Assembly: GCA_965249005.1 (NCBI GenBank)
Contig: CBDFLD010000022.1
Coordinates: 1,040,247-1,104,246 of the forward strand
Direction: 5' to 3'
Source: Acidobacteriota bacterium
Lineage (GTDB): Bacteria > Acidobacteriota > UBA6911
Length of the DNA stretch: 64,000 nt
Shown: piece after piece, positions 34,311-55,310 of the stretch
Layout of the letters: each line of letters begins with the position of its first letter
How positions within the stretch are numbered: the stretch's first letter is position 1
The notes under the pieces: model-generated
What the model saw: only the letters and a program-made list of their open reading frames with translations
Told to the model about the DNA's origin: nothing
The model's database searches: none
Made by a program: the position numbers and the translations under genes

Positions 34311-34338
34311 TACCTACCGGGAAGCGCCGGGATGTGTC
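34311..34338 (-). promoter_or_regulatory. putative element-specific ECF sigma promoter, copy 4
   Basis: GACAC-ATCCCGGCGCTTC-CCGGTAGGTA. Confidence 0.65.
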
Positions 34339-34584
34339 AGCTGAGATGCACTACCGGCCTTCGCCAGGATCTGACGTACCCGGCGCGGGGTGACGCCAGC
34401 CAGTTTGCCGATCTCGCGGGTGGAGACGCCTTCACTGATCCGTCAGGGCCAGCACGAGCTTGCGACGCGTCTCATAGAAGTGCGTATTGGCCGGGACCCA
34501 CAGCAGGCCCGTGAAGTGTTGCTGGACCTCGCTGAACAGATCCGGCGGCAGCACATCCTTGGCGTTGGCATATCGACGGTTCAC
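34314..34584 (-). pseudogene. small Mor/CD3324-like HTH regulator, interrupted
   Basis: GTG start overlaps the upstream stop; MNRRYANAKDVLPPDLFSEVQQHFTGLLWVP...LTDQ, then TGAA and a frame change to GVSTREIGKLAGVTPRRVRQIL. Confidence 0.7.
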
Positions 34585-35378
34585 GGTTTGCTGGTCTTTT
34601 TCTTGATCCATGGTTGATCCACGTCGGGGTTGTAAAAGCGCAGACGGTTTTCATTAGGCGGCGGACCGACGATCTCGATGGACTGCCGGGTCACCTCGCC
34701 GATGCGCTTTCTCTCGTCCAGGAAACACACAAGGCCATAGTCCTCGCCACAGGGAAAACGGAATCGTCCCCGGTTCTGGTAAAGCCGAGCCTCACTCCAT
34801 CCTAGGGATAGCGCCTGGTCTCGGATGGCATCGACCTGGGGCACGGCTGAGGACCGAACTCGCTGGATAAACCGCCAGTCGCCGTCTTCGGGGAAAAGAT
34901 ACGGTGGGACGGCCGGCGTCTCCTTCACTGGAGGGCGCACACGATCAGATCGGCCATCAAACGCATCGATCCGAGGCGGTGCATAGGTCTTGGGGTCGAG
35001 CGACTGGACGGCCGCACAGAGCGCCTCGTCTCCCAAGTGCTCGATGGCCCAGGCGTGAATCTCGTTGAACCGGGTGCGTAGCATATCGAAGGCCTGGGCC
35101 GAGAGACGTCCTGAGCCCACTCTCTTCTTGGCCAGGTCCATCCGGTGCCGCAGCCAGGCGTAGTAGTCCGGATCGAGCCGGCGAAAACAGGTCCCGTCGA
35201 TCCCGACGTCCCGAGCGAAGTGATGGGGCTTGTCCGTTTCCCAGGATTTCAGGTTGGTGGCTGCATAGAGCACGGTTTCCCGCTTGCTCGATTCCTTGGC
35301 GGGGGCGTCGTCCTTCCTGATCGGGATCGGGTCATCGTCCCCCGCTTTTTGTCTCTCGAGTATTGTTAGAAGGCTCAC
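34581..35378 (-). CDS. hypothetical element protein
   Basis: GGAGA RBS and GTG at 35378 downstream of promoter copy 3; coding-like composition (RRLDPDYYAW, LGWSEARLYQ). Confidence 0.7.
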   Translation of the reverse strand: MSLLTILERQKAGDDDPIPIRKDDAPAKESSKRETVLYAATNLKSWETDKPHHFARDVGIDGTCFRRLDPDYYAWLRHRMDLAKKRVGSGRLSAQAFDMLRTRFNEIHAWAIEHLGDEALCAAVQSLDPKTYAPPRIDAFDGRSDRVRPPVKETPAVPPYLFPEDGDWRFIQRVRSSAVPQVDAIRDQALSLGWSEARLYQNRGRFRFPCGEDYGLVCFLDERKRIGEVTRQSIEIVGPPPNENRLRFYNPDVDQPWIKKKTSKP

Positions 35379-35413
35379 GTGCGGCTCTCCGGTTGACAGT
35401 CTTCCCAAGGAGA

Positions 35414-35441
35414 TACTTACCGGAGCGAACCGCAAAGTGCC
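35414..35441 (-). promoter_or_regulatory. putative element-specific ECF sigma promoter, copy 3
   Basis: GGCAC-TTTGCGGTTCGCT-CCGGTAAGTA. Confidence 0.7.
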
Positions 35442-35945
35442 GGATGGTGAACGGGTAAATGATCCCGTTGGACCCTCTGGAACCTCCAATCATCCCCTCT
35501 CACGAGCGGAACTGATTGAATTCATTGAGGGTTGGTTATGATTGCCGAGGCGTAGTAGAAAAACGACCTCTGCAGCAGCAGGCCTCTCTTGGCGCCGACA
35601 GAAATCCCTCAAATGCCTGCTGTGGATCGCACTAGAGGAGGAAACTTTCTGAAGCCCCTTCACCACAACCACCTAAGCCCTTGATTTCACTTAGGTAAAT
35701 GTGGTATACAGTACGCCATCCAAGGATCTGGTGACAGGGTCTGCCAGCAGGCTCACGGGGCTGTTGAGCGGGACCACCCAAGGGCGTCGTGATGGGATGG
35801 TGTCCTTTTGCGCGTCTGCAGCTGATCGTCTCTTCCTGACCATTACGGGGTAGCGAACCTCGCGCAAGCGTAGGTTGGAAGGATCGATAGCTGAGCCAGA
35901 TTCGGACCGCCGACTGTACTGACAGATCGCCTGAAGGAGTAGCTG

Positions 35946-36773
35946 ATGCGTGTCGGGCTACAGAAATTCTTCGGCAGAGCTCTGTATCGGGCCGTCAAGC
36001 GCTGCTCGAGCCGACCGAGAACGTCGCCCGGTCCCTCTTTGTCACTGCTCCGAGACCTGTTGATCATCAAGATCTGCCTCTGGGCCGGCGCGGACCCGAA
36101 CGTGAAAGTTAACCAGAAGATCGGCATTTTCGGCAATACGACCGATAAAGGGAGAACAGCGTTGCATGAGGCGGCCTGCAACGTCTATGTCACTCATGAG
36201 ATCATCCAGCCGTTGCTGGCCGTCGGTGCGAATCCAAACGATAGGGATTCGGTCGGAGACTCGCCTCTCCATCTCCTGATCAAGAATGCCGCCCCGAGTT
36301 GGTTCCAAGGATACACCAACAGCCTCAGAGAATTGTTGGCGGCGGGCGCCGATCCCAACGCCCGCAATGCTTCCGGGGAGACTCCCTTACACCGGGTGCG
36401 AAACGGTTACGATGTCGAGTTGTTGGCAAGGGCCGGCGCCGACCCGAACGTGGCCAGTCCGTCCGGGGACACCCCGCTGCATCACGCGGCGCGCCGTGGA
36501 AAATCGATGGTTGTCCGGGCGCTGATGGTCGCCCGTGCAGATCCCACGGCCGAGAACAACGACGGGGCCACGCCGGCGGACTTGGCTGCCCAAGCAAAAT
36601 TGAAAGAGAGGGTACTTGAAAACCTCCTCGCGCAACTGCACCCGTCCGGCGGTCCTCGAAGTCAAAAAGAGAGGGCACGAGAGTCCGCACTCCGATCCGG
36701 AAAGGTTGTCCCCATCAAGCCGAGTCTATCCGCCCGGCTGCAGAGCCGGACCAAAAGCGTGAAAGAAAGCTGA
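35946..36773 (+). CDS. ankyrin-repeat protein
   Basis: GRTALHEAA, GDSPLHL, GETPLH, GDTPLHHAA and GA(N/D)PN repeats; start uncertain. Confidence 0.88.
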   Translation: MRVGLQKFFGRALYRAVKRCSSRPRTSPGPSLSLLRDLLIIKICLWAGADPNVKVNQKIGIFGNTTDKGRTALHEAACNVYVTHEIIQPLLAVGANPNDRDSVGDSPLHLLIKNAAPSWFQGYTNSLRELLAAGADPNARNASGETPLHRVRNGYDVELLARAGADPNVASPSGDTPLHHAARRGKSMVVRALMVARADPTAENNDGATPADLAAQAKLKERVLENLLAQLHPSGGPRSQKERARESALRSGKVVPIKPSLSARLQSRTKSVKES

Positions 36774-36879: not shown

Positions 36880-37183
36880 GCCGAAAGCGCCGAAGGTACC
36901 TTCGGCGCTTGGTTCTTCTCTTATATCTTATTATTTATCAATAATTTAGAGATAGATAGAGATAAGAAACGCCGAAGGCGCCGAAGGGTTTTGGAAAATA
37001 TTACTCCTCGTGTGAGCCGAAAAAAAGGGTGGTCCGGTCCTACCCCAGGAAGATCTCTTCCAGTACCTTTTTTATTTTTTTACTCTAAGGGGGGGGTGGA
37101 CTCTCAAAACCTTCGGCACCTTCGGCGCTTTGGGTTTAACACTATTATTTTCAGCCAGTTGTAGCGTCGAAGGTACCTTCGGC
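36880..37183. repeat. origin-like cluster of GCCGAAGG repeats with AT-rich spacers
   Basis: 26 bp perfect palindrome at 36885-36910; direct pair at 36971-36987; inverted pair at 37110-37126; palindrome at 37168-37183; AT-rich tract at 36913-36969. Confidence 0.75.
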
Positions 37184-37258
37184 AAAAGCACCCCAGAGCA
37201 CAAAAAAGACCGCCTGCCGTTGGCAAACGGGCCATCGGGGAGGTTGGGGAGGTTCTAG

Positions 37259-39948
37259 CTAGGTCACTCGGTTTGGTGGATCGAATAGAGCTTCGTGCCG
37301 TGGCGGTTCTGAGGACTCGCCGAAGCAGTCGCTGCCCTGGTTGGCGATATCGAAGTTGATCACAAAGGTCCGCGACTGGATCTCGGAAAGCTCTCCCATC
37401 AGCGGCTCGATGCCGGTGGTGTTGAGCAAACACTTGGTGCGCTCGATGACGGTCTCGGTATCGGTGCCGCTCTTGCGCTTCTCCTTGGCGATCCCGGTGA
37501 GGCTGGTCAGCATGAAGGTGGTGAGGTCTTCGGTCATCTGGCGGGCTTCGATGTTGTCGAGCACGATGAGCGGGTTCTGTGAGCCGTCGGTGTAGTTTGG
37601 CGGCGTCGGTGGCCTTCTTGTGCTGGGGCTCGCCGTAAATGAGCGCCGAGATGAGTTTGCTGGCGATTGTCTTACCCGAGCCGGCGAGACCTTCGAAACG
37701 GGTCATGGGCCGGGTGCCGGTGAAATCGATCAGTAGGAAGCAGGACAGCCAGGAAATAATGAGAGCACGGTCCTGCTGGGAACAAGCGATGTTGTCGACC
37801 AGTATTTCCTCCAGCTTGCGGTCGGCTTCTTCCAGATCGGCATCGGCGAGGAACTGAAGGGGTTTCATCTTCCGGGAGCCTTCGAGGATGATCTTGTTGG
37901 CATTGCCGCCGTTTTTAAGAACCTCGATGCCATCGGGCGTGATCTTGACGATCTCTTGTGCGTCGTTGTTGAGGTTGAAGTAGACCGTTTGGTTGGGAAC
38001 GTCGGTGTGTAGCCACGAGAAGTGGTCCTGCATCTCCCCGTGGATCAGGGCCAAGCTGGACAGCACTTCGAAGAAGATGCGCCCGCTGCCCGTGGGCGGC
38101 ACCAGACCGGTCTGTTTGTAGAGCATGGCCGAGTACTGGCGTTTGCGCCCCCGGTCGGCCGAATCCATCCAGTAGATGGTGTTGTCGAAGTAAACAAACG
38201 GTTCGCCGTGGCGGGTGTAGAAGAACTGCGCGGCGCCGTGATCCGTGAACCACTGGTAGGCAGCCTCGGCGACCAGGGTGTAGTCGGGGGCCTGCCCGTC
38301 CGGGGTCTCCAACAACACCTCATTGATCCGGGCTCGGCAGGAGCCGGCTGGCGCATTGGTGAGATGTTTCTTGCGGATATTCTGGCTATGTTTTTCTTGC
38401 CGGGCTTGTTCCTTGAGCTCCTTTTTCACGGCCCGCACCTGCTGGCGCAGCGTGGTGAGCGACAGGCTCGACTTCCCGAAACGCTCCTGGATGCGCTTCA
38501 GGTGACGGTTTTGCTCCAGCGGCGACAGCAACGCCACCTCATTCAGGATCGGCTCGAGCTGCTGGTTGCGGGCTGATTCGGCGACATCGGTGGGCAGCCG
38601 GTCGATGCCGAATTCAAGCGGTGTCGTGGCCTCGCCGAGTAGCGTTTCGAACTCCGTGGCCGTGTGGCCGGAGGCAAAGTAGTCGTTGACATCGATCTTG
38701 GCCGCAGCGAGCAGACCTTCGGCTTCCTCCATGTCTTCGGAGCCCCGACCGTTGAGGTGATCGGGGAGATCTCCCGCTCCGACAGCCGCATCCAGATCGA
38801 AGCGTTCCCGTAACTCGCGCCGGGCTTGTTGCTGGGTCTCATCCAGAGGCAGAACGACCAGTTTCGTTTCGATCTTGTGCCCGGTGAGGACGCTTGCAGT
38901 CTTGAGCGCGCCGTTCAAGCCCACCTGAGAGACTTCGTTGTCCTGGCAGATGTAAACCGTCTTTATGCCCTGGAGCTTGGGCAACAGGCGACTCCAGTCT
39001 GATTCTCGGATGTGCACCGTGACCGGGGAGACGACGGGGAAGCCGCGCTCCATCAGAGCGATGCAGTCGGTGACGCCCTCGGTGATGATGACGCGATCGG
39101 GCCGGGTGAGCAGGCAGTCTTCGTTATAGAGGTGGCTGTTGTTGATCGAGGGCGCGATGTAGTGGTTCTTGCGGTCGTTGTGGACCCGAAGCTTCTTGTA
39201 TTTGCCCCGCTCATACTCGTTGTCGGGCGTCCAGGGCGTCTGGCGTCCGATCATGAATACGACGCGGCCACGGCTCCAGTAGGGGAAGATGATGCGCCGA
39301 TGAGATATTGTCAAATGTTGTGGATGGGTCCTTTCGTTTGGTCAGGGCGGAGAGGACGCCACGGTATTCTGTTCCGTTGTCTTGGCAGGCGCCGTTGGTG
39401 GCAAAGCCGATTTGGAGGGAATCGATGGTCTCGTCTGAGATCCCGTAGTGGGCATGCAGCCACTCCAAGACTTTGGGCGACTCCTTTAGCCGCCGGTGGT
39501 AGAACGCCGCCAGTTCCGTCAGCGCTTCCTGGACCCGCACCTCCAGCTTCCGCTCCGCCTCGATCTTCTGCAGTTGCTCGGGGGAAAGTCCGTACTGACC
39601 GAGCGGCGGCAAAGAGACCTTGGCGGCCAGATAGTCGCGGGCCCGCTTGTGGGTCTCGGGCATGGGACCGGATCGCCCGGCGGTGACGGTCCTGGATTGG
39701 ATGAACTCGACCAGCTGTAGCACGTCGCCCCCCTTGCGGCAGGCATGGCAAAAGAAGCCTTGCTTGTCGAGCCAGACGTGAAGCGAGAGGCGGCTCGTGC
39801 TCTTGTGGTGGGGGCAATCGCATTGCAGGAGGCCGTTGGTTTCGGCCGTGATGCGGGGACCGAGGAGCTCGCGAGCCACCTGACCGATGTCGACCTCGGT
39901 GATCTGCCGGTAGTATTCCTGGACGTTGCCCGGTGGTGTATTGCTCAT
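37259..39948 (-). pseudogene. DNA primase-helicase (zinc finger, TOPRIM, P-loop), multiply frameshifted and truncated
   Basis: CPHH...CHAC zinc finger; IITEGVTD and QDNE TOPRIM; GLAGSGKT; frame breaks at ~39310 and 37596-37598. Confidence 0.85.
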
Positions 39949-42149
39949 ATCGGGTCCTCGTAATCTGCGAGAAGGAAAGACAGAAATGTTCTCCTCGCGT
40001 CGAGATGGCGCTTCCTGGCGCAGTTGGCGATGCCCCAGTGATCCCCGACGATGACGACCGCTTCCTTGGCCCGGGTCACGCCGGTGTAGAAGAGATTGCG
40101 GTGGTGCATGAAGGAGTGAGACTTGTGCACGACGACGACGGCGCCGGGGAACTCCGAGCCTTGTGCCTTGTGGATGGTGAGCGCGTAGGCCAGCTCGATA
40201 TCGGACCGGTTCGGCGAGCCGGATTTGATATTGACCGGCATGCCGTCAAACGTGATCCGCAGTGAGCCATCGTTGGCGACCTCGGTGATGGTGCCCACCG
40301 CGCCGTTCATCACCCCGAGGGCGTAGTTGTTGCGGGTCTGGATGACCTTGTCGTGAACCAACAACTGGGGTCGGCGTCCCGGCTTGGGCTCTGGCGCCTC
40401 GACGCCCCAGAGCTTGGCCTGGATCAGCCGTTGCAGCGCCAGGTTGAGCGCCCGGGTGCCAAGCGGACCCTTGTGAGTCGGGGTCAGCACCTGGATGTCG
40501 TCCCGCAGGTCGAACCCGAGGCGCTCCGAGAGCACGGTCTCGAACAGCTTGAGCAGGAAGTGCTGCGCGTCGTCTGGATCGGTGAACTGATCTACCAGGT
40601 ACCAGGCGCGCCGGCCTGAGGCCTCCAGCTCACTGGTCTTGCGAACCTGGCCGGCCAGCACGGCAATGCTGTTCTCCTTAAGCACCCCGGCTTGGCGGAC
40701 CACCTGGTCGAGCACAACGGTGGGTACGGCCCGGGTCTCGACCAGATCGCGCAGCAGGTTCCCTGGACCCACGGGCGGCAGCTGATTGTGATCGCCCACC
40801 AGCACCACGGCGGTCCGCTTGAGATGGATGGACCGGAACAGGTGCCAGGCCAGGGGAACATCGACCATCGACACTTCGTCGACGATGACGACGTCGGCCA
40901 TGATGGGGTCCTCGGGTCCGCGGGCGAACGACTTGCCGTCGAACCCGAGCAGCCGGTGGAGGGTGCTGGCCCGGCGTCCGGAGAGCTCCTCGAGACGCTG
41001 GGCCGCCTTGCCAGTGGGTGCGGCCAGGATCACCCGCAAGCCCTGCTCGTCGTAAATTCGGGTGAGCGCGGCAACGGTGTAGGACTTGCCGCTCCCGGCG
41101 CCGCCGCTGATCAACGTGATGGTGTGCGAGAGCGCCGTCAGGACGGCCTCGTGTTGGCCCGGAAGGAGCGTCGGCGCCAGCTCGTCGATAAGATCGGGCA
41201 GTTCCTCCGCCTCGGGAAAATGTGGGTTGGGCGCCTCGCCTTTGCCGAGCGTCTTGGCCAGGTCCTCTTCCATCCGGCGGATGTCCGGTCGCGCGACGAG
41301 AAATAGGCCGCCGTGGGACGCGCAGGTGAACGCACCGCCGTCGATGAGGGATTTGAGCGACTGCTCGATAAGGGCCCGGCTGTCGAGCGCGTCCATGACG
41401 AGCAGCGCGTTGGCCCGCTCGATCAATTCCTCGAACTCGATCCAGCAATCACCTTGGTCCAATGCCGACGTGACGCAGTCGAGAATGCCGGCCCGGATGC
41501 GGGCCGGGTTGTCCTTGGCGGTCCCCATCCGGCGGGCGATCCTGTCGACCCGCTTGAAGCCGAAGCCGCGGATCTCCCGAACAATGAGATAGGGATCGTC
41601 TTGGAGCAGGCCCAGGGCATCGTTGCCGAGCCTGTCGACCAGACTCGTGACTTGGTGGTGGGTGAGGCCGTAGGCCGCCAGCTGAGTCAGCGCCCGGTTG
41701 ACCTCTCGGGTCTTCTGCCACACCTCCCGCAGCCGCTCGACCGTCGCCAGGGGCAACTTCGCAGCCTCGGCGACGGCCTCCGGCTCTTCGACAATGACCC
41801 GGTCGAAATCCTTGCTGAAGCGTTCGGCGATCCGTTTCGCCTTGACCGGTCCGATCCCCTTGATGTCCGGGTGGTGAGCCAGGTAGTGCGCCAGTCCCTC
41901 CCCGTCCAGTTCGAGGTCATAGACGGCGGTCTCGACCTCGAGCTGCTGTCCGTACTGGGGATGCGTGACCCAATGGCCTTCCAGGATCACCTGATCCTGC
42001 TCGCGGGCGTAGAGCTTGCCGGCGAAGGAAACTTCATCGCCGTCGGAGGTGATCAGCCGCCCTGCGGAGAAACGAGCGCCGGCGTAATAGACGGCCTCGA
42101 TCCGTCCGCGAATCTTGGTGACTGTTGACGTTAAGGTTGTGGTTGCCAT
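39945..42149 (-). CDS. RecD2-like SF1B DNA helicase
   Basis: HhH motifs IKGIGPVKA and GFGFKRVD; GGAGSGKS, APTGKAA, DEVSMVD, GDHNQLPPVG, AYALTIHKAQGSEF, YTGVTRA. Confidence 0.93.
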   Translation of the reverse strand: MATTTLTSTVTKIRGRIEAVYYAGARFSAGRLITSDGDEVSFAGKLYAREQDQVILEGHWVTHPQYGQQLEVETAVYDLELDGEGLAHYLAHHPDIKGIGPVKAKRIAERFSKDFDRVIVEEPEAVAEAAKLPLATVERLREVWQKTREVNRALTQLAAYGLTHHQVTSLVDRLGNDALGLLQDDPYLIVREIRGFGFKRVDRIARRMGTAKDNPARIRAGILDCVTSALDQGDCWIEFEELIERANALLVMDALDSRALIEQSLKSLIDGGAFTCASHGGLFLVARPDIRRMEEDLAKTLGKGEAPNPHFPEAEELPDLIDELAPTLLPGQHEAVLTALSHTITLISGGAGSGKSYTVAALTRIYDEQGLRVILAAPTGKAAQRLEELSGRRASTLHRLLGFDGKSFARGPEDPIMADVVIVDEVSMVDVPLAWHLFRSIHLKRTAVVLVGDHNQLPPVGPGNLLRDLVETRAVPTVVLDQVVRQAGVLKENSIAVLAGQVRKTSELEASGRRAWYLVDQFTDPDDAQHFLLKLFETVLSERLGFDLRDDIQVLTPTHKGPLGTRALNLALQRLIQAKLWGVEAPEPKPGRRPQLLVHDKVIQTRNNYALGVMNGAVGTITEVANDGSLRITFDGMPVNIKSGSPNRSDIELAYALTIHKAQGSEFPGAVVVVHKSHSFMHHRNLFYTGVTRAKEAVVIVGDHWGIANCARKRHLDARRTFLSFLLADYEDPI

Positions 42150-43103: not shown

Positions 43104-43108
43104 GGTCC

Positions 43109-46316: not shown

Positions 46317-46366
46317 TGCTTTGCCTCCTTCAGGTCTTGATCCGTTAGGAGGGCGCCCTCAAGTGA

Positions 46367-46394: not shown

Positions 46395-46402
46395 GGCAGC
46401 CG

Positions 46403-46990: not shown

Positions 46991-47055
46991 CGAGCCTCCT
47001 CGGGGCCGAGGAGGGGATCGCGTGGGTGTCGACCGGTACCGGGTCGGCCGCTCTC

Positions 47056-47125
47056 AAACGAAAAGAGCGGAAAGTGCGCTATGGAGGACGCCGGTTTCGG
47101 CGACACCCACAACGACCTCCGCTCT
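47056..47125 (-). terminator. long hairpin plus U-rich tail upstream of the sigma gene (terminator/attenuator or structured RNA)
   Basis: ~26 bp imperfect stem AGAGCGGAGGT-CGTTGTGG-GTCGCCG / CGGCGTC-CCATAGCG-ACTTTCCGCTCT followed by TTTCGTTT. Confidence 0.6.
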
Positions 47126-47182
47126 GCGGCCAGCCAGCTGTCTGGTGTAGGGACCGTGTTTTGTTACTTGTCAGGCTCGGGC

Positions 47183-47512
47183 TCAGACCCGAATCCCGTC
47201 CGCCACGGCCATGCGGACGGGAAGCCCGTTGTCAATCACGAGTTCCAGGATCTGCAGCGACCGCTCCCGGTCGAAGACCTCGAACAGTTCCGCCACCTTT
47301 TTCTTCAGGGCGAAGCCGTCAGTGGCGTGGCGGGCGTTCGGTCTGTTGTCCTTCCCGAACACGATGTGCCGCGCCACCCGGGGCGGTGGCTTGAACACGG
47401 GCTCCCGCTCCCGCACTTCGAGTTGTTCGATCCGCCCGTAATTCACCTCCTGCATCAGCTCGACGAGGCGTCGCCTGGCAGGAGTCAGGGCCGCCTTGGT
47501 CACATCCGTCAT
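47183..47512 (-). CDS. hypothetical element protein (109 aa)
   Basis: AAGGAGG RBS; MTDVTKAALTPARRRLVELMQEVNYGRIE. Confidence 0.78.
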   Translation of the reverse strand: MTDVTKAALTPARRRLVELMQEVNYGRIEQLEVREREPVFKPPPRVARHIVFGKDNRPNARHATDGFALKKKVAELFEVFDRERSLQILELVIDNGLPVRMAVADGIRV

Positions 47513-47862
47513 TTCCGGACCTCCTTTCGCGCTTTGGCGCATCAACGAAATCGCCCCCTGGGAGGCGGGTCCGGCGAGGGTTCCTCCCAGGGGGCGATGC
47601 CCGGATTTCCGGGCGGGGCCGTCGGGGGAAGAGCTCTCGTCGGAGCCTTCACCCCTCAATGGCGAAATTTCGTTGAAAGGCGGCGAGCGCCCGCAGAGGT
47701 TCGGGCGACAGAACAAGTAAACCGCTGGGATTCAGTCAGATAGGAGACTTAAGGAGGGGAACCTTTTTTGATTTTGTTTCCGCAGGCCCAGCGAAATTTC
47801 GCTGAACAGCACGGACGAACGCCTGAGATTCCCTCAGATCAGTGTTTACCCCTGAGCCGTGA

Positions 47863-48954
47863 TCACAGGTATTCGGGGAGATCTGATAGGTGCGCGAGGA
47901 TGATCGTGTTTAGGCGCTTGTGCAGATTGTTCCGTTTCGCGTGATGCCACACCGATTTATCCGATACCACGACGTGGCAATACGGGAGCGTTCCCGCCAC
48001 CGCGTTGATGTCGAAGATGTCGTTCTTTGTCCATCGGTGATTCGGGTTGCGATGGTAAGACGTCTTCAATGTCACTGCGACGTCAAAACTAGGCATAGAA
48101 TAGAATGCGGAGCGAGGGTCTGAACTCGCCGTGACGAAGTCGTCAAATGACTCGATCCCACGAGCGGCGAGACCTCTGCGGAGTCTGACGATAGTAAAGA
48201 CGCTCCCGTCTACTAGTTCACTGACAGAAATCACACCGCGCAGATCGTCCGGTCGCTGTCTTGTCGTGCGACTGAGTTTCCGGGCTAGATTAGCTTCTGC
48301 TTTGGCCTCCCGTACATATGCCTTATGAATGGCGTCCGGATTCCATCCTTGCTCCTGAAGTTTGAGTTCCTCCTTGGGTGTGGGGCCCTCGATCTCTTTC
48401 CGATTCAAGTGCAATCCCACCTCTTGCAGAAGCGTATCCCACGCTTGTGGGTCATCGAGCAGTCGCCGTAATCCGGAGGTGACATCTTCACCACCTGCGG
48501 TTTCTAGTTTGATGCCGCCGACTATGCCCAACCCCTGATAGCCACCGGAGTTGAGGAAGTCCATCGTGCTGATTGGTTGGGGGCTGGGGCCAACGATTTG
48601 ATCTAAGAGGGTTTCGACCTCGTGCTCTGCGACGACGTGTTGTGGCGTTACTACCATGAAACGGGAAATTTCTTCGACAACTTCGCGGAGGTCACGGCGT
48701 TGGCGGTGTTTTATTCTTGAGATCTCCATGTAGGTATGCAGAGAGAGGGGGAACACAGCAGTTCCATCCATCACTGCCTTGCGGCAAGCAGCGAGGATCT
48801 CATTGCAATTGTTGCCGTCGCGATGGCCGGCGTGTGCCTTGGATAGCTGAATCCAGTGGTTGAGATCCAGGTAGATGAGTTTCGGCGGAGGCGTTGGTAC
48901 GCTGAGAGTCTTTGGCCAAAGTGGTTTGATCGACTGCCTGGGCACGGAAATCAC
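47863..48954 (-). CDS. hypothetical protein with PIN-like acidic motifs
   Basis: IYLDLNHW, YMEI and NDIFD...PYCHVVVSDK; more A/T-ending codons than its neighbours. Confidence 0.65.
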   Translation of the reverse strand: MISVPRQSIKPLWPKTLSVPTPPPKLIYLDLNHWIQLSKAHAGHRDGNNCNEILAACRKAVMDGTAVFPLSLHTYMEISRIKHRQRRDLREVVEEISRFMVVTPQHVVAEHEVETLLDQIVGPSPQPISTMDFLNSGGYQGLGIVGGIKLETAGGEDVTSGLRRLLDDPQAWDTLLQEVGLHLNRKEIEGPTPKEELKLQEQGWNPDAIHKAYVREAKAEANLARKLSRTTRQRPDDLRGVISVSELVDGSVFTIVRLRRGLAARGIESFDDFVTASSDPRSAFYSMPSFDVAVTLKTSYHRNPNHRWTKNDIFDINAVAGTLPYCHVVVSDKSVWHHAKRNNLHKRLNTIILAHLSDLPEYL

Positions 48955-50070
48955 CTAACAATCAATGCTTGACGAGGAGCTAAAGGCGATGTCGTAATCC
49001 GCAGCTCCTTCGGGAAATATCTCGAATTTGCACCTGTAGCTCTTTGTGTCCTTCACCCACTCGATGGGCTCCTCGTCGATCCGGAAGAATTCGCGCAGCC
49101 GCTTCGACAGTTCCTGCTTTTGCTTCTTCACGTTGAGGGCCGCATGCCTGCCCTGCCAGTCGATCTGACCACGGGAGTCGGCGAAGCTTTCCAGCAGCGT
49201 CCATTGCTTGGTCCGGTCGCCATTCTTGCGGTTGGACATGCCCATCTGTGTGTAGTTGAACACCCCCTGTTCCGAATTGACTTGAACCGAAACGGTGTGG
49301 CCGTCGACGAACCGGATCGCAACGTCCCCCCAGGTCGAGTCGGGCGGGGTTGGGAAGAAGACCATCGAACCGTCGGCCTCGGGAGCGGGCAAGTTGGCGG
49401 CTCGAAATGCGCACAGGATGTCGTCGACAGGCCGCAGGAGGCGTGGTCTTCGGCGCCCGACAAGCTCGGTGTTTTCCACCAGCGGAACGAATGCCGACTT
49501 CCGGTTTCGCAGCAGCCTTTCGGTCGCCGCCGCGCAGTGCTCGCGCGTGGGAGCCAGCAAAACAAACGGCTCGTCGGTCCGGCTTACGAGACCACTGACG
49601 ATGGAGTCGAAGTCGTCGGGTTCGAGCTGAATGGTCAGGTAGACCGGAAAGCGAAACCCGGCGTATGGGGAATAGGCGCCGATTCGCGTCGTTTGATGAA
49701 GCCCGGTTGTCGGGTCGGGCTCTTCCATCAGACTGAAGGCTCTGACCAGCGCCTGATCGAAGGCCGGGCGGTCCAGTTCGTGGAGGGCGATGTCCGAACG
49801 CTTGAGCGGGAAAGTCGGGCAACCACGCCCGCACCGGCAGACCGCCACGATGTCGTTCGGCCCATGCTCAACGACTTCATGCGCGCACCCGCAACCGGGA
49901 CGCGCCGTGCAGGGATGCGAAGTGGCCCGCTTGCCGTTGGGCCGAATAAACGATTTGGCCGCCGCGTACTCATCGCCGAACCGCGTGCGCCATTCCGCGT
50001 TCACGGCCGACAAGCCGGGAACCGTCTCCAGCGTCGGCCAGAAGCCTCTCGGACTATTCCTCATCTTCAT
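48955..50070 (-). CDS. hypothetical protein with Cys-rich N-terminus and possible C-terminal winged HTH
   Basis: C..GCGC..CRC..GC cluster; KKQKQELSKRLREFF; overlaps the upstream gene. Confidence 0.75.
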   Translation of the reverse strand: MKMRNSPRGFWPTLETVPGLSAVNAEWRTRFGDEYAAAKSFIRPNGKRATSHPCTARPGCGCAHEVVEHGPNDIVAVCRCGRGCPTFPLKRSDIALHELDRPAFDQALVRAFSLMEEPDPTTGLHQTTRIGAYSPYAGFRFPVYLTIQLEPDDFDSIVSGLVSRTDEPFVLLAPTREHCAAATERLLRNRKSAFVPLVENTELVGRRRPRLLRPVDDILCAFRAANLPAPEADGSMVFFPTPPDSTWGDVAIRFVDGHTVSVQVNSEQGVFNYTQMGMSNRKNGDRTKQWTLLESFADSRGQIDWQGRHAALNVKKQKQELSKRLREFFRIDEEPIEWVKDTKSYRCKFEIFPEGAADYDIAFSSSSSIDC

Positions 50071-51214
50071 CCTGTTCGACGAAGCCGCGCCTGGTGAGCC
50101 AGTCCTCCACGACGTCGGCGTCGCTGTCCCTGGTGTATTGGGCGATGTTCGAGGGGCGGATCGTCACCGTGCGGGGATTCTTCGCATCGGTGAACTTCAC
50201 GTGAAAGCTCGCTCGAATGATGCGTGCCCTGGACGGCATGCTGCGCCCAGCTGCCTCGAGCGCGGCGAAGATGTCGTTCGCCTTGCGGATTTCGATCTCC
50301 CGCTCGGCGCCGCCCCACAGGAACTGGACCTCCTTGAGCCGCACCCAGTCCATGCCATCGATGTCGGTGCAAACGATGGACGCCGGTCCCGCCGTCCGGA
50401 GCGGTTCGAGCGTGTACTTGCCGGTACCGGGAAAGAAGTCCTCGTCGCCGAAGAGATGGCGGCCGAACTCCCTGCGGTAGGTCTCCTTCTCTCCCTTGTT
50501 GCAGGCATTCATTCGGAGTTCACCGGGGGCCGGTTCGTAGACCAGCACGTCATGCTTCTCCGGGCGGTAGAAGACGCTCGACGTCCGGGCGCCGTCGAGG
50601 CTGCCTTCACGCCGGAACGGATCGCCGTGGCGCACGAGGAACCAGATCGAATCGTCCTTCGGATACACGAACACGCGCGATCCCCGGCCACGCTTCTTCC
50701 TCTCGAACCAGGCGTCCAGATCGCGTTCAAGAGCGGCCAGCGTTTCCCGTGAGGGTTGTCTGAACGTGGGGACCGGCCGCGTTTCGGTCTGGAAGTACTC
50801 GAAGGACCGCGGCCGGGTGAGATACTGCTCGGCATGCTTGCGTTCCAGGAGCCGCCGGTCCTGGAGGAAGACCTGAACCGCGACATCCGCCGCCGTGGGG
50901 TCGGGCTTTCCGTCCAATGAGAGGCCATTCGTCTCCGCCTCTTCCAACAGCAGGTCCATGGATTCGTCAGTGGACATCTCGTTGACGAAGTACAGGGCGT
51001 CGACCAGGTTTTTCGGCGTGTCCGAGTCCGGACTCATCAGCACCTCGACCAGCCGCTCGTGGTCCAGACCATTCGAGGCGGACGCCGGCAGCAACCTCAA
51101 CCCTCGGCCTTCGAAGTAGGACCGGTACGGCCCCAGGAATTCGTGGAGACGCTGCGGCGCGATGGCCTTGAGGACGGCGGGCTGGGCGAAACGCCGGAGG
51201 TTGTAGGTTGCCAT
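50054..51214 (-). CDS. hypothetical element protein (386 aa)
   Basis: AAGGAG RBS; long ORF directly after the LexA-like gene with element-typical codon use. Confidence 0.8.
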   Translation of the reverse strand: MATYNLRRFAQPAVLKAIAPQRLHEFLGPYRSYFEGRGLRLLPASASNGLDHERLVEVLMSPDSDTPKNLVDALYFVNEMSTDESMDLLLEEAETNGLSLDGKPDPTAADVAVQVFLQDRRLLERKHAEQYLTRPRSFEYFQTETRPVPTFRQPSRETLAALERDLDAWFERKKRGRGSRVFVYPKDDSIWFLVRHGDPFRREGSLDGARTSSVFYRPEKHDVLVYEPAPGELRMNACNKGEKETYRREFGRHLFGDEDFFPGTGKYTLEPLRTAGPASIVCTDIDGMDWVRLKEVQFLWGGAEREIEIRKANDIFAALEAAGRSMPSRARIIRASFHVKFTDAKNPRTVTIRPSNIAQYTRDSDADVVEDWLTRRGFVEQDEDEE

Positions 51215-51232
51215 GGGTCGGACGCTCCTTAT

Positions 51233-51931
51233 CTACTCTTGTTGGATTGCTCCTGTGCTTGGCCCGCTGACTCCGGACCGGCTGATGGCCACGACCTTGC
51301 CCAGGATGCGCAGTCCATCGTCCGGGCCGATCGGCAGGGGCCGGTGCGCCGGGTTCTCGGGCCGGAGCGCCGGGTTCTCGGGCCGGAGCTCGATTCGTTC
51401 TTCACGGATGAAGAGCCGCTTGACCGTGGCCTCTTGGTCCAGCAGCGCGACCACGATGTCGCCGCTTTCCGCCACGGGCTGTTCCCGAACCACAACGAGG
51501 TCCCCGTCGTGGATGCCGGCGCCGATCATGCTCTCGCCTTCAACCTCGAGCGCGAAGCAGCGGCCGGAGCGGACCGCCCGGCTGTCAACGAGAACCTCGC
51601 CGATGACGTTCTCCTCAGCCAGGACCGGCTGGCCCGCGGCGACCCTGCCGACGATGGGAACCGCCAACAACTCGAGCACTTCGTCCGTGGGTTCCCGAAG
51701 AACGGTGAGCCCGCGCGCCTTCCTCGACTCCCGCTTGACGTAGCCTTTGCGCACCAGCTGGCTGACTTGGTCGCGCACGCTCGGGGTCGATATCTCGAGG
51801 ATGTCCGCGAGTTCCTGGATGGTCGGGGGAAACCCCTGCTGGCGGCTGAAACGGCGCAGCTCGCCCAATGTGCGCCGCTGCGGGCCGGTGATTTCCTCAA
51901 CGCGTGGTCTGCCTCTCGACTGACTGCTCAT
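51233..51931 (-). CDS. LexA-like repressor (winged HTH plus S24 peptidase)
   Basis: PPTIQELA HTH; VAAG cleavage site; GESM (Ser) and TVKR (Lys). Confidence 0.92.
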   Translation of the reverse strand: MSSQSRGRPRVEEITGPQRRTLGELRRFSRQQGFPPTIQELADILEISTPSVRDQVSQLVRKGYVKRESRKARGLTVLREPTDEVLELLAVPIVGRVAAGQPVLAEENVIGEVLVDSRAVRSGRCFALEVEGESMIGAGIHDGDLVVVREQPVAESGDIVVALLDQEATVKRLFIREERIELRPENPALRPENPAHRPLPIGPDDGLRILGKVVAISRSGVSGPSTGAIQQE

Positions 51932-52061
51932 GGCAAATCCTCTCTCAGGGGAGATTACAGTGGCTATGCCCAGGGACCGGAGACCAGGACTGTCGAGCAG
52001 TCCGGCCTATCGGACAACGCGGCGCACCTGGGTCAACGGGTCGAAGAGAACAGTATATAAA

Positions 52062-52087
52062 CCTCTTATATTGACAAGAATAAGAGG
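52062..52087. promoter_or_regulatory. candidate operator upstream of the LexA-like gene
   Basis: CCTCTTAT-N10-ATAAGAGG perfect inverted repeat in an AT-rich tract next to a minus-strand TATACT. Confidence 0.5.
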
Positions 52088-52223
52088 ATGCTGGTGGCAG
52101 CTCACCGGACGGAGGCAGCCTGATGGTAGGAGTGTGTGGACAGCGCAAAAGCCTGCGGAGGTGAGACCGAACAAGAGCGCAAGGGCAAGGGCCGATAATC
52201 TGGCCCGACCCGAGGGTTGCTTG

Positions 52224-52656
52224 CTACTTCAGCCGCCGTGCGGCCAGCCGAGCCCACATTGTGCGCTGACGGTTCCAGTGTGGGACCGTGGCGATGGGGC
52301 GAAGGTCCTTCTCGCGGATGGGATCGCGGCCCTGGAGGGTGCGCGGCAGGAACAGCAGCGCCTCCTGAATGTCGGGCGCCAAGTGGAGCAGGCACATGAT
52401 CTGCGAAATTCGAGCCTGCGTCACATAGCCGAGTCGTGCCAGGTCCGCATAGTCACTAACCTCGCCACGCCGGACCAAATCGTCGAAGCGGATGGCCAAG
52501 GCCATAATCCTCGAGACACGGGGCACGTTCCCCGGTTCGACCGCTCGGTCCTTGCCTCCATGATTGCGATTCCGGCCGTTGGCGGTGCGGAAGGTAAAGG
52601 AGACCTCAACCGAACTCGGCCCCGGGTTCGGTTGAGCTGGATGGGGTTGTTCTCAT
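52224..52656 (-). pseudogene. small HTH-like recombinase accessory protein, probably frameshifted near the start
   Basis: ATGA overlap at 52653-52656 is one base out of frame with VPRVSRIMALAIRF...YADLARLGYVTQARISQIM; an alternative GTG start at 52526 is possible. Confidence 0.6.
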
Positions 52657-54267
52657 GTTGTCGCCTCCTTTCCGGCGATGGCCCCTTCGCTGCAGAGCGC
52701 CTTGATGCCCACCGAGCGAAAGGCCACTGTGACCCTGCCGTCCCGCCCGTCGTACCCGATCCGCTCAATGAGCAGCCGGATGATGCGCGCCTGCTCGCGA
52801 GGCGACAGCGACTCCCACACCGGATCGAAGTGCGCCAGGGCCTGGGTCAACTCGCTTTCGCCCACGGTTTCCCGCTCCAGCGCAATGACCTCTTCGCGGA
52901 TGGCAGTGATCCGCTGCTCGGAGGCTCGGATTCGATCCTGCAGGTCGGCCAGCTGATCGGTCGTGGATCGGCCGTTGGAGCTTTCCGAACCGGCCCCGTG
53001 AACCAGCTTCTCGACGCTGGAGTACAGCTGCTTAAGCTCGCTTTCCTGTCGGCGCCGTTCGACCTCCAGTTCCGTCATTCGCCGGTCGCTCTGCTCACGC
53101 ACCCCCTTGATCGTCGCCTGGACGATCTCCTCGTTGCGCCCGACCCCGCGAATGTGTTCCACCACGGCGGTTTCAATCTCGTGAGCGTTGAGCGCCTTGC
53201 TCGGGCACGACGACCAGCCCCGCTGCTGGGCGTTGCGGCAGACGTAGTAGCGGTAGCGCTTTTTTTGCTTGCAAGTGTAGGCGTGCGCCATGGCGGATTC
53301 GCAGGGCGTACAATACAACAGGCCCTTGAGCAGCGCCCCGTGCTTGTTGCGCACCTTCCGTCCTCCCGAGAGGCCGTTTCTGCGCAGCACCTCCTGGACC
53401 TGTTGCCACACATCGGCATCGACGATGGCGTCGTGTTCGCCCTCGTAGAGGGTTCCTTCGTACCGCACCTTGCCGGTGTAGAGCACGTAGGTGAGAAGCC
53501 GATACAACGCGTTCTTGGTGAAGGGCTTGCCGCCGCGCTCATGGCCCTTCTTGGTGATCCACTGTTTGGTGACCCAGCCGCGGCGGTTGAGTTCCTGGAC
53601 GACCGGGATCGCGGCCTGGTGTTCGAGATAACAGATTGTAGATCGCCCGCACCTGAGCCGCCTCCTCCGGGTTGACGATCAACCGGCCCCCTTCCGGTGC
53701 CACGTCGTAGCCCAGGGTCGGCTGGCCCCCCATCCACTTGCCCTTGCGACGGGCCGCCGACATCTTGTCCTTGACGCGTTCGGAGATGATCTCCCGCTCG
53801 AACTGGGCAAAGGAGAGCAGGATGTTCATGGTGAGCCGCCCCATGGAGCTGGTCGTGTTGAACTGCTGGGTGACCGAGACAAAGCTCACCTTGTGGCGGT
53901 CGAAGAGCTCCATGATGCGGGCGAAGTCCAGCAGCGACCGGCTGAGACGATCCACCTTGTAGACCACCACGCAGTCGATCCGGGAGGCCTCGATGTCGGC
54001 ACACAGGCGCTCAAGAGCAGGCCGCTGCATGTTGCCGCCGGTGAAGCCGCCATCGTCGTAGTAGTCGGGCAGGCAGCTCCAGCCCTCGTGCCGCTGACTG
54101 GCGATGTAGGCTTCTGCCGATTCCCGCTGCGCGTCGAGGCTGTTGAACTCCTGGTCGAGTCCTTCCTCCGTTGACTTGCGGGTGTAGATGGCGCAGCGGA
54201 CGGCGTCGTTTTGAGTTGGGGCAGAAGCCGGGGTCATCGACGGAGCGGAGTGGAGATTTCCGTTCAT
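52653..54267 (-). pseudogene. large serine recombinase, +1 frameshift at ~53630
   Basis: YTRKS (catalytic Ser), YKVDRLSRS, recombinase domain, zinc ribbon CTPC..YYVC..C; CTGTTATCTC restores to LYLEHQ if one T is removed. Confidence 0.92.
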
Positions 54268-54800
54268 TCGCTCACCCCCTGATGGTGACGCCCGCTCGCG
54301 GGTGCGTCACCACCGGTGAGGCCGAAGAACAGGAACCCGTTCCATTTGCTGCCCGTGATTTCCTTGGCGATGGCCGACAGGGACGGATAGCGCCGGTCCT
54401 CGAACTCGAAGCCCTCATCGAGCACCTTGACCACCACGTCGCGCCCCCGAAACTCCCGCACCAGCAGTGTGCCGGGCACGGGTAGTCGCGGATCTCGCGA
54501 GGGCGGGATGCGGCTCTTCGCCGTTCGAGCCCTCACCTCCGCTGAGCCGGGCCGGATCTGATCACGCGGGGCGCGCATTCTGAGATCGGTGTCGTTGGCC
54601 AGTTCCTCGGCACGCCGGCGGGCCCGCTCGGAGAGGCCGCCCTCGGCCAGGGCCTGCAGGCGCCAGGCGATGCGCTTTTGCAGGGCCGCCTTGTGGTGGC
54701 AGCGGCTCTCCTCGCCGAAGACCTCCAGGTACTTGTCCCGGAGCTGGCCCACGGTCAGTCGGGACAGCTCCTGGATCTGTTGATAGGTGCTTGCTTTCAT
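54264..54800 (-). CDS. DUF2924-domain protein
   Basis: IAWRLQALAEGGLS, PGTLLVREFRG, YPSLSAIAKEITGSKWNGFLFFGL; ATGA overlap with the recombinase. Confidence 0.9.
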   Translation of the reverse strand: MKASTYQQIQELSRLTVGQLRDKYLEVFGEESRCHHKAALQKRIAWRLQALAEGGLSERARRRAEELANDTDLRMRAPRDQIRPGSAEVRARTAKSRIPPSRDPRLPVPGTLLVREFRGRDVVVKVLDEGFEFEDRRYPSLSAIAKEITGSKWNGFLFFGLTGGDAPASGRHHQGVSE

Positions 54801-54876
54801 CCAATTTCCTCCTGTTCATGGACTCACCCTCTGGCGGGCGGTCCATCCGCCTCGCCGTCTCGGGGCGTTAACTCGT

Positions 54877-55080
54877 TCATTCATGAACGCTTCGGTGGCC
54901 CGAACGATCAAGTCTATTCTCCGTAAGCGGCTGAAAATGCTTATCTTTCCCGGCCTCGTTCCCGGATGTGGGCGAAATTCCTCGGCTCTTCCGGAGGCGC
55001 AGGCAGCCTTGGGCCAGGATCGAGGCGATCTCCGCGATCACCTCATCGCGGGTGGGTGGGATGTTTGCGTTGGTCGGCAT
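54877..55080 (-). CDS. small hypothetical element protein
   Basis: AAGGAGG RBS; EIASILAQGCLRL helix; first ORF after promoter copy 1. Confidence 0.6.
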   Translation of the reverse strand: MPTNANIPPTRDEVIAEIASILAQGCLRLRKSRGISPTSGNEAGKDKHFQPLTENRLDRSGHRSVHE

Positions 55081-55282
55081 CCGGTCCTCCTTGGCGGGAG
55101 GCCGCGGAAGAGGAGGTGCTGTGGATGCCGCGTGGGACGGAAACGGTCGTCAGGAGCCGTTGGAGTCCGCTCGACACCGCACGATGGCGATATCGCCGGC
55201 ACCCACAACGGGCTCCGTCCTTCACGGCCGCTGCCGCTGTCTGGTGATCCGCCGGACCCTCTTGGCCCGGCTTCTATATAGA

Positions 55283-55310
55283 TACTTACCGGAGCGAGTG
55301 AAAAAGTGTC
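55283..55310 (-). promoter_or_regulatory. putative element-specific ECF sigma promoter, copy 1
   Basis: GACAC-TTTTTCACTCGCT-CCGGTAAGTA. Confidence 0.72.

Follow-up and report, generated by a model that had tools for sequence, protein, structure and literature searches.

How are the genes of an integrated element transcribed when one short motif stands in front of several of its operons and one of its genes encodes a sigma factor? This question is raised by a 64-kb stretch from the genome of an Acidobacteriota bacterium of the lineage UBA6911 (GCA_965249005.1, contig CBDFLD010000022.1, positions 1,040,247 to 1,104,246 of the forward strand), the whole of which is called the window here. Between 34.2 and 55.6 kb the window holds that half of a temperate prophage with a contractile tail (myovirus-like) which serves integration, immunity and replication; the prophage measures ~60-70 kb when whole. 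This half encodes a LexA-like repressor and an extracytoplasmic function (ECF)-like sigma factor, and it carries four copies of a bipartite motif. A first-pass annotation, made from the sequence alone, had proposed a private cascade in which DNA damage releases the repressor, the sigma factor is made and the other operons are then switched on. We have followed this proposal through related elements in many genomes, and the comparison of sequences makes it fairly probable that a repressor-gated phage sigma factor drives a promoter class private to this phage family, which would make the phage transcriptionally self-contained.

The motif in the window and in the source genome

The motif reads G(A/G)CAC-N13-CCGGTA(A/G)GTA. 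Its reverse complement, TACYTACCGG-N13-GTGYC, has exactly four matches in the window, at 55283-55310 (P1), 46367-46394 (P2), 35414-35441 (P3) and 34311-34338 (P4), all of them on the minus strand, and no match was obtained across 100 dinucleotide-preserving shuffles of the window. The four copies are real and far beyond chance. A weight matrix trained on 110 instances, all from other genomes, gives the four sites 27-37 bits and the rest of the window, on both strands, less than 14 bits. Exact matching and the independent matrix therefore agree on the four sites given in the first-pass annotation, and with no further site of at least 14 bits on either strand its remark that the host part of the window lacks the motif also holds.

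P1 (GACAC-N13-CCGGTAAGTA; 27.3 bits) precedes a copy of a leader RNA, a small open reading frame (ORF), a gene for a DUF2924 protein and a recombinase gene, and has an identical copy at position 284535 of another contig of the same genome, C21. P2, the strongest at 36.6 bits, lies 9 nt past the stop codon of the sigma gene and 50 nt ahead of the next ATG, a position which is kept in relatives. P3 is the GGCAC variant (30.9 bits), 36 nt ahead of a GTG start codon at 35378. P4 (31.5 bits) is the last copy before an IS1380-family insertion sequence (IS), the end of which is 112 nt away; in intact relatives this copy leads into further genes.

Across the 8.18-Mb source genome the strict motif has 12 matches and the reversed control has 0. 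Eight lie outside the window, on contigs C10, C17 and C21, where they occupy three further stretches of phage-like DNA, and some of these matches duplicate one another; all 12 fall within four patches of phage DNA. A motif frequent throughout the genome would have spoken against a link with the element, and the genome-wide scan found it confined to phage patches. A slightly looser pattern, GACR-N14-CCGGTANGTA, has 14 matches in the source genome (G000). In 50 genomes of the same order it has 3 matches in total versus 17 for the reversed pattern, and no homolog of the sigma factor was found in these 50 genomes.

In a sample of 401 genomes of the phylum (a tally which includes the unpublished genome G211, counted in that tally alone) the sigma factor was found in 9, and at least three motif matches were found in 8, seven of which are sigma-positive. 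Independent hosts were scanned with a looser pattern, GACR-N16-GGTANGTA. Here Syntrophus has 8 co-oriented matches in 55 kb and 2 elsewhere, an Ozemobacter contig has 9 in 58 kb and 0 elsewhere in 5.7 Mb, and a Vicinamibacterales metagenome-assembled genome (MAG), G057, has 10 in 60 kb. Intact relatives thus carry 8-10 co-oriented copies, which mark where operons begin, and host DNA is almost free of the motif. Absence from related elements had been named as a further outcome that would tell against the motif; many relatives carry it, with rigid spacing. The motif is specific to this phage family, conserved, and fixed in position and orientation. The pattern is that of a phage-private promoter, in which a single consensus is repeated before phage operons and absent in host DNA.

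Anatomy of the motif in relatives

Sigma-bearing loci were taken from IMG/VR (18 and 68 loci) and from genomes (80 loci). In 87 such loci (1.34 Mb) the pattern G[AT]C[AG]-N16-GGTAnGTn has 112 matches on the strand that carries the sigma gene and 24 on its complement, as compared with 7 and 4 in the reversed sequences of the same loci. Close behind the sigma stop codon, a few bases away at most, 61 of 86 relatives have a motif; with further loci included the count is 99 of 137. Lineage variants occur (GACAC/GACGG..CCGGTAnGTA, GTCAT..CGGGTAAGTA and GTCAC..CGGGTAGGTC, as well as more distant forms), and across them the distance between the two boxes is invariant.

Conservation extends to positions which the search pattern leaves free. 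Among 126 unique cores, the two bases CC before the -35 box are conserved in 100 and 107, and the CC before GGTA in 110 and 99. Also conserved are TT(T/C) after the first box, (c)(t)CC before GGTA and (T/A)C after GTA, which gives the extended consensus CC-GAC(A/G)-n-TT(T/C)-N9-(c)(t)CC-GGTA-n-GTA-(T/A)C, with fixed spacing.

The placement of the motif is promoter-like. From its end to the next ORF start on the same strand the median distance is 77.5 nt, and this start lies no more than 150 nt away in 74 of 90 instances versus 28% of random positions. In two intact relatives the motif precedes the recombinase, replication, HTH (helix-turn-helix), packaging (terminase), portal, methylase/head and sheath operons as well as two baseplate/fibre operons. 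A scan of window positions 45900-55500 for sigma-70 promoters gave 0 sites, and terminator-like sites in the same region gave no signal (6 versus 8.9 expected). Readings of the motif as a sigma-54, FliA or Bacteroidetes-type promoter were dropped on inspection by eye, the boxes and spacing not fitting their consensuses.

Could the motif be a cis site of another kind, used in RNA processing or antitermination, or bound as DNA by replication, packaging or recombination proteins? Its copies are strictly co-oriented and intergenic, as sites acting at the RNA level would be, and some overlap the 3' end or the stop codon of the upstream ORF. However, two short boxes separated by 13 unconserved bases of fixed length suggest a protein touching two patches of duplex DNA, and the boxes are not complementary, so that no hairpin can form. 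Operons which lack sigma-70-like promoters would on such an account have no promoter at all, and the first copy stands at the very edge of the element, where there is no upstream phage transcript to process. We regard a non-promoter role as very improbable.

The sigma factor and its probable link to the motif

The sigma gene (46403-46990, minus strand) encodes 195 amino acids, with sigma-2 at residues 11-81 and a probable sigma-4 at residues 114-188. Region 2 is recognised by Pfam Sigma70_r2 (29.2 bits, cut-off 24). When a profile of the family was compared with the PDB, residues 15-69 aligned to RpoE and a second stretch, consisting of LPxxxR and a helix-turn-helix, aligned to RpoE/SigE. In the AlphaFold model (mean predicted local distance difference test score 73) residues 11-81 and 114-188 each form a helical domain and the linker, 83-112, is disordered; with 195 amino acids and two helical domains only, region 1.1 and the sigma-3 domain are absent. 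Full-length Foldseek searches gave the ECF sigma factors SigH, SigE, SigL and AlgU as top matches (probability ~1, E-value 4e-3). The fold class is therefore two-domain ECF-like, and both profile and fold matches bear out the earlier statement that the element encodes an ECF-like sigma factor downstream of a LexA-family repressor. A match to the RpoE-like sigma factor associated with type III-E CRISPR (NF041236) was rejected, as it reached 22.4 bits in the sigma-2 part against a 100-bit cut-off and there is no CRISPR context.

The sigma gene is single copy in the source genome and is the only sigma-like gene in these elements, in which no phage RNA polymerase was seen. No anti-sigma partner was found, the neighbouring ORFs at 47183-47512 and 46002-46316 matching no family. 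Since the sigma factor and the motif travel together, variation in one can be compared with variation in the other. In the sigma-4 helix presumed to read the -35 box, residue 176 is Y with a GAC box at 74 loci, N, H or W with a GTC box at 18 loci, and Y with GGC at 3 loci. The table behind these counts has 137 rows, of which 96 carry both traits; an 86-row tree has 63 with both, and the trees were built without the helix. The covariation fits co-evolution of the sigma helix and the -35 box and is suggestive, with few independent events. From this and from the placement of the motif we infer that the phage sigma factor itself reads the motif.

The principal alternative is that the motif is a phage promoter read by the host housekeeping holoenzyme with the help of a phage activator, either a 97-amino-acid HTH protein or one of the conserved ORFs, and that the sigma factor serves another job. 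The small HTH protein is indeed conserved beside two motif copies, and two conserved ORFs flank the sigma gene in 70 of the 87 loci. Middle and late promoters of Mu and P2 are activator-dependent as a rule. The features of the motif itself point the other way, however. Its 3' box, GGTA(n)GTA, is without the T at the last position of the sigma-70 -10 hexamer, it is not a dyad, and it precedes even the earliest operons (those behind P1 and P2), the HTH gene being located further downstream. Hosts of many phyla, with differing housekeeping sigma factors, also carry near-identical motifs, and residue 176 of the sigma factor tracks the -35 variant. An activator working with the host holoenzyme is, in our judgement, unlikely, and recognition by the phage sigma factor remains the reading that we prefer.

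The repressor operon and its promoter

The repressor gene (51233-51931, minus strand) belongs to the LexA family. It matches Pfam Peptidase_S24 (7.5e-31) and LexA_DNA_bind (4.4e-10) as well as the LexA model TIGR00498 (159 bits, cut-off 111), and the protein has an N-terminal LexA-type winged HTH and a C-terminal S24 peptidase domain. Its translation contains VAAGQP, GESM and TVKR, which we take to be the Ala-Gly cleavage site and the Ser/Lys dyad. Between repressor and sigma gene there are three ORFs on the minus strand (50054-51214, 48955-50070 and 47863-48954, together 47863-51214), the presence of which varies among relatives (tblastn matches in 32, 38 and 1 of the 87 loci). These are followed by a conserved ORF of 109 amino acids (47183-47512, minus strand), directly upstream of the leader of the sigma gene, with tblastn matches in 70 of 87 loci.

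Upstream of the repressor gene lies a palindrome (52062-52087; CCTCTTAT-N10-ATAAGAGG, perfect 8+8), a candidate operator/promoter of the operon. It occurs once in the window, overlaps a -35-like TTGTCA and has a conserved TATACT downstream. At the same place Syntrophus has TTGACC-17-TATAAT with a 7-bp inverted repeat in the spacer, and the element on contig C17 has TTGACC-18-TATACT. C17 and the genome G056 carry other palindromes inside sigma-70-like promoters here, as is expected for distinct immunity types. Among 26 relatives with a repressor homolog, 17 have a 10-11/12 match to TTGACA-16/18-TATAAT before the repressor gene versus 52 of 520 shuffles; the 26 loci are mutually related, so that the 17 matches are not independent cases. 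Comparison across the family thus indicates a conventional promoter of sigma-70 type, accompanied by a palindrome, for the LexA-like/sigma operon, in contrast to the operons led by the motif. Immediately ahead of the sigma gene, within the 47183-47512 ORF or the leader, neither inspection by eye nor the hexamer score gave a promoter in 20 relatives.

Proposed mechanism

These observations can be assembled into a sequence of events. Host holoenzyme would transcribe the operon from repressor to sigma gene from its sigma-70-type promoter, which the LexA-like repressor would close by binding the palindrome. On loss of the repressor, presumably through RecA-stimulated self-cleavage, the operon would be expressed and the sigma factor would rise, provided that the leader allows its translation; the last hairpin of the leader probably hides the ribosome-binding site. 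The sigma factor, together with host core RNA polymerase, would then read the private motif, with transcription predicted to start a few bases downstream. In intact relatives ~10 co-oriented operons would be driven in this way, namely those for the integrase, replication, the small HTH regulator, packaging, head and three for the tail. P1 may also read through into the repressor-sigma operon, resulting in positive feedback. Of these steps, the parts proposed for the sigma-70-type promoter, for the repressor at the palindrome and for the sigma factor at the motif rest on comparative sequence, and DNA-damage induction, feedback and the role of the leader are our inference.

The first-pass annotation had presented this as a cascade from repressor to sigma factor to the rest of the genes. 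The presence of a sigma-70-type promoter only at the repressor operon fits such a cascade. As to its linear form, P1 at 55283 stands ahead of the repressor-sigma operon, which makes feedback no less and no more likely than a simple linear course.

A number of points weigh against this scheme. The first is that the co-occurrence of sigma factor and motif shows linkage on the same element and not recognition. The covariation at residue 176 has exceptions, with Y accompanying GTC at 2 loci and H or R accompanying GAC at 2 (L087, L117, L149, L167). Independent changes of each trait number 2 in the 86-row tree and 5 in the 137-row tree, and with only 2 independent pairs on supported branches a sign test cannot reach significance. 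After the sigma gene, the motif patterns have no match in 38 of 137 relatives, mostly distant ones. One genome, G060, has 5 clustered motif matches, which is fewer than the 7 in its reversed control, and the eighth of the multi-match genomes in the phylum sample, G363, has a cluster of 4 matches and is sigma-negative; this cluster is probably a remnant.

Other points concern the proteins and promoters themselves. The sigma factor passes TIGR02937 (residues 15-184) with 44.0 bits against a cut-off of 42.9, a margin of ~1 bit, and no Pfam region-4 model was reported on it at E-values up to 0.01. ECF promoters have an AAC-type -35 box and a CGT-type -10 box, and the motif consensus, CCGAC(A/G)nTT...CCGGTAnGTA, is unlike either. 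In the window, the spacing between TTGTCA and TATACT before the repressor gene is odd, at 14 nt, and the sigma-70 scan does not call this promoter. Finally, the copy in the window looks damaged, with frame changes in the recombinase, the primase and the small HTH gene and a stop codon after the intein of the ATPase. We nevertheless hold the repressor-gated sigma factor to be fairly probable, as stated at the outset.

A structured leader RNA

The earlier description of the sigma gene was right as to the sigma factor and did not mention what lies before its ORF, which is a conserved, structured leader (46985-47161, minus strand). Nucleotide conservation spans the ~175 nt from the 109-amino-acid ORF to the sigma ATG and persists in relatives whose sigma factors are only 31-50% identical. 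The proposed fold consists of four helices. One is a small hairpin, another (GUGGGUGU/ACACCCAC) pairs at long range around a second hairpin, and the terminal hairpin covers the GGAGG ribosome-binding site. RNAalifold alone gives a local stem only, with 19 pairs, 4 of which have compensatory changes; we ourselves proposed the helix at long range and the hairpin covering the ribosome-binding site, and then tested them on the alignment. In this fold 94.1% of cells are paired, as compared with 36-57% when partners are slid, and 7 pairs are changed on both sides. The covariation score is 0.178, as against 0.096 in shuffles, none of which, out of 500, attained the score of the alignment.

A covariance model of the leader, R1, scores the copy in the window at 148.5 bits and finds the sigma leader in relatives outside its training (L103, L091, L028 and L117, at 39-93 bits). 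The model gives a further, weaker copy in the window at 55078-55259 (minus strand, 30.6 bits; E-value 9e-7 in a 623-kb search and 1e-9 in a local search), which runs from ~24 nt past P1 up to the ATG of an ORF of 67 amino acids (54877-55080, minus strand, from the ORF map). Weaker second copies behind P1 are likewise found in C21, C17 (twice), G057, L106 and L107, and the leader is further found at L013:17936-18086, L014:8055-8200, L128:8932-9116, L106:3803-3909 and L107:4211-4354. Rfam gave no match for the leader in window positions 33000-57000 at E-values up to 1. The alignments show both the conservation and the pairing of the leader, and it is a candidate for a new cis-regulatory RNA of this phage family.

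The prophage and its apparent decay

The first-pass annotation had taken the region for a generic mobile element. It is instead the early/replication half of a tailed prophage, with late genes on C21 and C10 and relatives which have 8-10 motifs. All genes from 55.3 to 37.1 kb are on the minus strand. On the right the element stops near 55578-55596, the point at which alignments to three relatives break off, and at the other side it ends at the IS1380-family insertion past P4. The MAG G057, the sigma factor of which is 97% identical, is collinear with three stretches of the source genome: the window from 55578 to 37365, contig C21 at ~289.9-311.9 kb (90-95% nucleotide identity) and contig C10 at 1-27 kb (83-92%). 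By PHROGs, the genes on C21 include those for the terminase large subunit, portal (3.1e-58), a methyltransferase of 1298 amino acids and the major head protein (2.6e-84), and tail sheath and Baseplate_J genes are present in the collinear G057. Terminase, portal, head, sheath and baseplate genes are thus collinear with integrase and repressor, as in a tailed contractile phage. The source genome has its genes for packaging, head and tail on two further contigs, where they too follow copies of the motif.

The genes behind the four motif copies in the window agree largely with the first-pass annotation. Behind P1 are, as claimed, the DUF2924 gene (54264-54800, minus strand; Pfam PF11149, 1.5e-45) and a large serine recombinase (52653-54267, minus strand), which is in two frames, with Resolvase at 53539-54267, Zn_ribbon_recom at 52653-53507 and a frame change near 53507-53539. 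They are followed by a protein of 100 amino acids (52224-52526, minus strand) that matches PHROG 14161 ('recombinase', 5.5e-14). The operon behind P2 holds the expected nuclease, ATPase, helicase and primase; its first gene is a conserved ORF of 104 amino acids (46002-46316, minus strand; tblastn matches in 70 of 87 loci). The replication module proper (37104-46005, minus strand) encodes a PD-(D/E)XK nuclease, an AAA_24 ATPase, an SSB-like protein, an ERCC4-type nuclease, a RecD2-like helicase and a CHC2 primase, the last of which reads across several frames in the window. A LAGLIDADG intein (43793-44974, minus strand) sits in the P-loop region of the AAA_24 ATPase (GK|C...HN|S), with a stop codon (43793-43795) two codons past it; the ATPase copies on C17 and in G057 are without the intein.

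P3 was said to precede a gene at 35378 and a Mor-like regulator. An ORF of 265 amino acids (34581-35378, minus strand), starting with GTG at 35378, and a small HTH gene are present there, and a homolog of the ORF lies behind the equivalent motif in G057. The identification with Mor does not stand. The intact 97-amino-acid homolog of the small protein matches HTH_23 (9.5e-6), HTH_28 and, weakly, Sigma70_r4, with no Mor match in Pfam or NCBIfam; it is best described as an HTH_23/sigma-region-4-like protein, split in the window over two frames (34317-34611, minus strand; parts 34435-34611 and 34317-34442) with its stop codon inside P4. Between primase and P3, on the opposite strand, lies an ankyrin-repeat gene (35946-36773, plus strand; Pfam Ank, 3.1e-24), which may be a moron (cargo) gene; a greedy ORF map of G057 has no gene of its size at that place.

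Pfam and PHROG searches of the ORFs at 47183-47716, 47863-48954, 48955-50070, 50054-51214, 46002-46316 and 34581-35489 gave no match. NCBIfam gave no match for the two ORFs flanking the sigma gene, and in the protein atlas these are 'hypothetical' and mostly in viral clusters.

The IS1380-family element beside P4, rightly noted in the first-pass annotation, has its limits at 32537-34199 (plus strand; DDE_Tnp_1_4, 6.8e-117) and truncates the prophage. It has ~45 copies of 99.6-99.9% identity on at least 15 contigs of the source genome, and near-identical copies in this number indicate a recent burst of transposition.

The state of this prophage bears on whether its circuit still works. The circuit in the source genome may be a relic, as the copy looks broken and the late genes are on other contigs, and it is an even question whether the whole system there is dead, with no expression, excision, replication or particles. 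This would be compatible with the sigma factor reading the motif in the family at large. It is suggested by the gene damage already described, by the IS cutting the element after P4, and by the location of the late genes on C21 and C10 together with a duplicate of P1-DUF2924 with a truncated recombinase on C21. On the other hand, the sigma gene, the repressor gene, the leader and P1 to P4 remain intact, with ~93% identity to their counterparts elsewhere, and the sigma factor could act in trans on the motif copies of C21 and C10. Some of the gene breaks may also be assembly errors. The alignment to the relative L045 has 52 gap openings in 10.8 kb, which makes assembly indels possible, and the many indels versus close relatives may be errors of long-read assembly.

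Several further observations concern the other phage patches of the source genome. The duplicate at C21:284535-286018 is 100% identical to P1-DUF2924, and C21:267812 is a third copy of the P1 region. C17:1-28300 holds a diverged second element with 60-92% amino acid identity over the repressor-operon and replication genes, and this contig begins exactly where the sigma gene of its element would be. C10:1-27000 holds the tail genes, and its first 1.9 kb repeat C21:~309.5-311.5 kb. The 1298-amino-acid DNA methyltransferase (C21:304536-308432; PHROG 27806, 1270 bits) is the first gene behind a motif copy which also leads to the major head gene. In G057, a fragment of 153 amino acids after motif copy 4 (L127:9332-9793, minus strand) resembles the C-terminal catalytic domain of cobalamin-independent methionine synthase (Meth_synt_2, 5.7e-12). 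Beside the prophage border in the window, a host gene (55901-61189, minus strand) encodes a protein of 1762 amino acids in the translation of which several near-identical tandem repeats of ~80 amino acids can be read; its C-terminal part looks like an outer-membrane barrel by translation, and a strong GC skew at 56-60 kb coincides with it.

Host spread and significance

Relatives of the sigma factor number 429 in a word-indexed search, and a profile search gave 981 clusters at 50% identity (E-values up to 1e-30). The sigma factor has no homolog by tblastn in 50,697 GenBank phage records, by which the family is without a cultured phage representative, and none was found in plasmids either. Cultured hosts are Syntrophus buswellii DM-2, Desulfosarcina cetonica JCM 12296 and Pseudodesulfovibrio thermohalotolerans. 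Over about 16 kb the Syntrophus buswellii prophage shares 91-95% nucleotide identity with prophages of long contigs under many labels, which include Nitrospiraceae, Ozemobacter, Desulfobacterium, Pelobacter, Zixibacteria, Desulfosoma, Anaerolinea and Phycisphaerae (loci L071, L069, L056, L063, L060, L054, L059, L064 and L070). At the level of phyla the labels include Desulfobacterota, Nitrospirota, Chloroflexota, Planctomycetota and Zixibacteria. Alignments of at least ~16 kb share one left border, ~340 nt before P1, and the near-identical copies sit in long contigs or complete genomes assigned to many phyla. This identity across phyla reflects either a very wide host range or mislabelled bins, and some MAG labels may be wrong.

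A bolder account would unite these observations in a transcriptionally autonomous temperate myovirus. Its sole sigma factor, made from one promoter of host type under the control of the phage-encoded LexA-like repressor, would fire ~10 operons, leader RNAs would gate the sigma gene and the integrase operon, and residue 176 (Y versus N/H/Q) would set A or T in the -35 box. Only the conserved core polymerase would then be needed, and such a phage could for this reason cross phylum boundaries. We put this forward tentatively, as an account about which doubt outweighs belief.

In the literature searched, supplementary files apart, we found no description of the motif, of the sigma family or of an element with DUF2924 and a sigma factor, and matches to 10-mers of the motif were primers in unrelated papers. 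Within that scope, features without a description are the ECF-like class of the phage sigma factor, the temperate lifestyle, an apparently single promoter class genome-wide, the motif and the leader RNA. Phage sigma factors are textbook knowledge only for a few lytic phages of Bacillus and E. coli, and here a sigma factor of ECF-like type appears to run a temperate phage. If the pair of sigma factor and promoter is confirmed, it would offer a simple explanation of an unusually wide host range. It would also be an orthogonal sigma/promoter pair already tested by nature in very different bacteria, and the ~28-bp signature could be used to delimit these prophages and their operons in metagenomes.

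Comparison with known systems

The redirection of host RNA polymerase by phage-encoded sigma factors is dealt with as general background in PMC9429907. Among sigma factors as such, the closest matches in sequence and fold are those of ECF group 4 (SigE of E. coli, SigH, SigE and SigL of M. tuberculosis, and AlgU of P. aeruginosa), which consist of sigma-2 and sigma-4 only, as this protein of ~195 amino acids appears to, and read bipartite promoters of rigid spacing, as the motif would be. The present sigma factor differs from group 4 in that no anti-sigma factor was found, its promoter is without AAC/CGT boxes, it is phage-encoded and has a structured leader, and the Pfam models of region 4 are silent on it.

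A small phage HTH protein at the border of replication and late genes recalls Mor and C of Mu and Ogr of P2. Here, however, the 97-amino-acid protein is without a Mor match, and the motif is not a dyad and precedes early operons too.

SOS-controlled sigma factors on mobile elements are known from UviA of the Clostridium perfringens plasmid pIP404 and the TcdR family. In these, as in the scheme proposed here, a LexA-type repressor controls an element-borne sigma factor which activates genes of the element itself. These sigma factors are of group 5, though, with one or a few targets, and answer to the LexA of the host, whereas the prophage would use its own repressor and its sigma factor would serve the whole phage genome.

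The phage sigma factors gp28 and gp33/34 of SPO1 (Bacillus) and gp55 of T4 belong to lytic phages. Their sigma factors act in temporal cascades, and here a temperate prophage apparently uses one sigma factor for all operons, including that of the integrase; the sigma factor is two-domain and ECF-like, and the sequence of the promoter is different. What the present phage family would share with SPO1 and T4 is the principle, in which a phage protein replaces the host sigma factor on the core enzyme and a promoter consensus found only in the phage stands before many of its operons.

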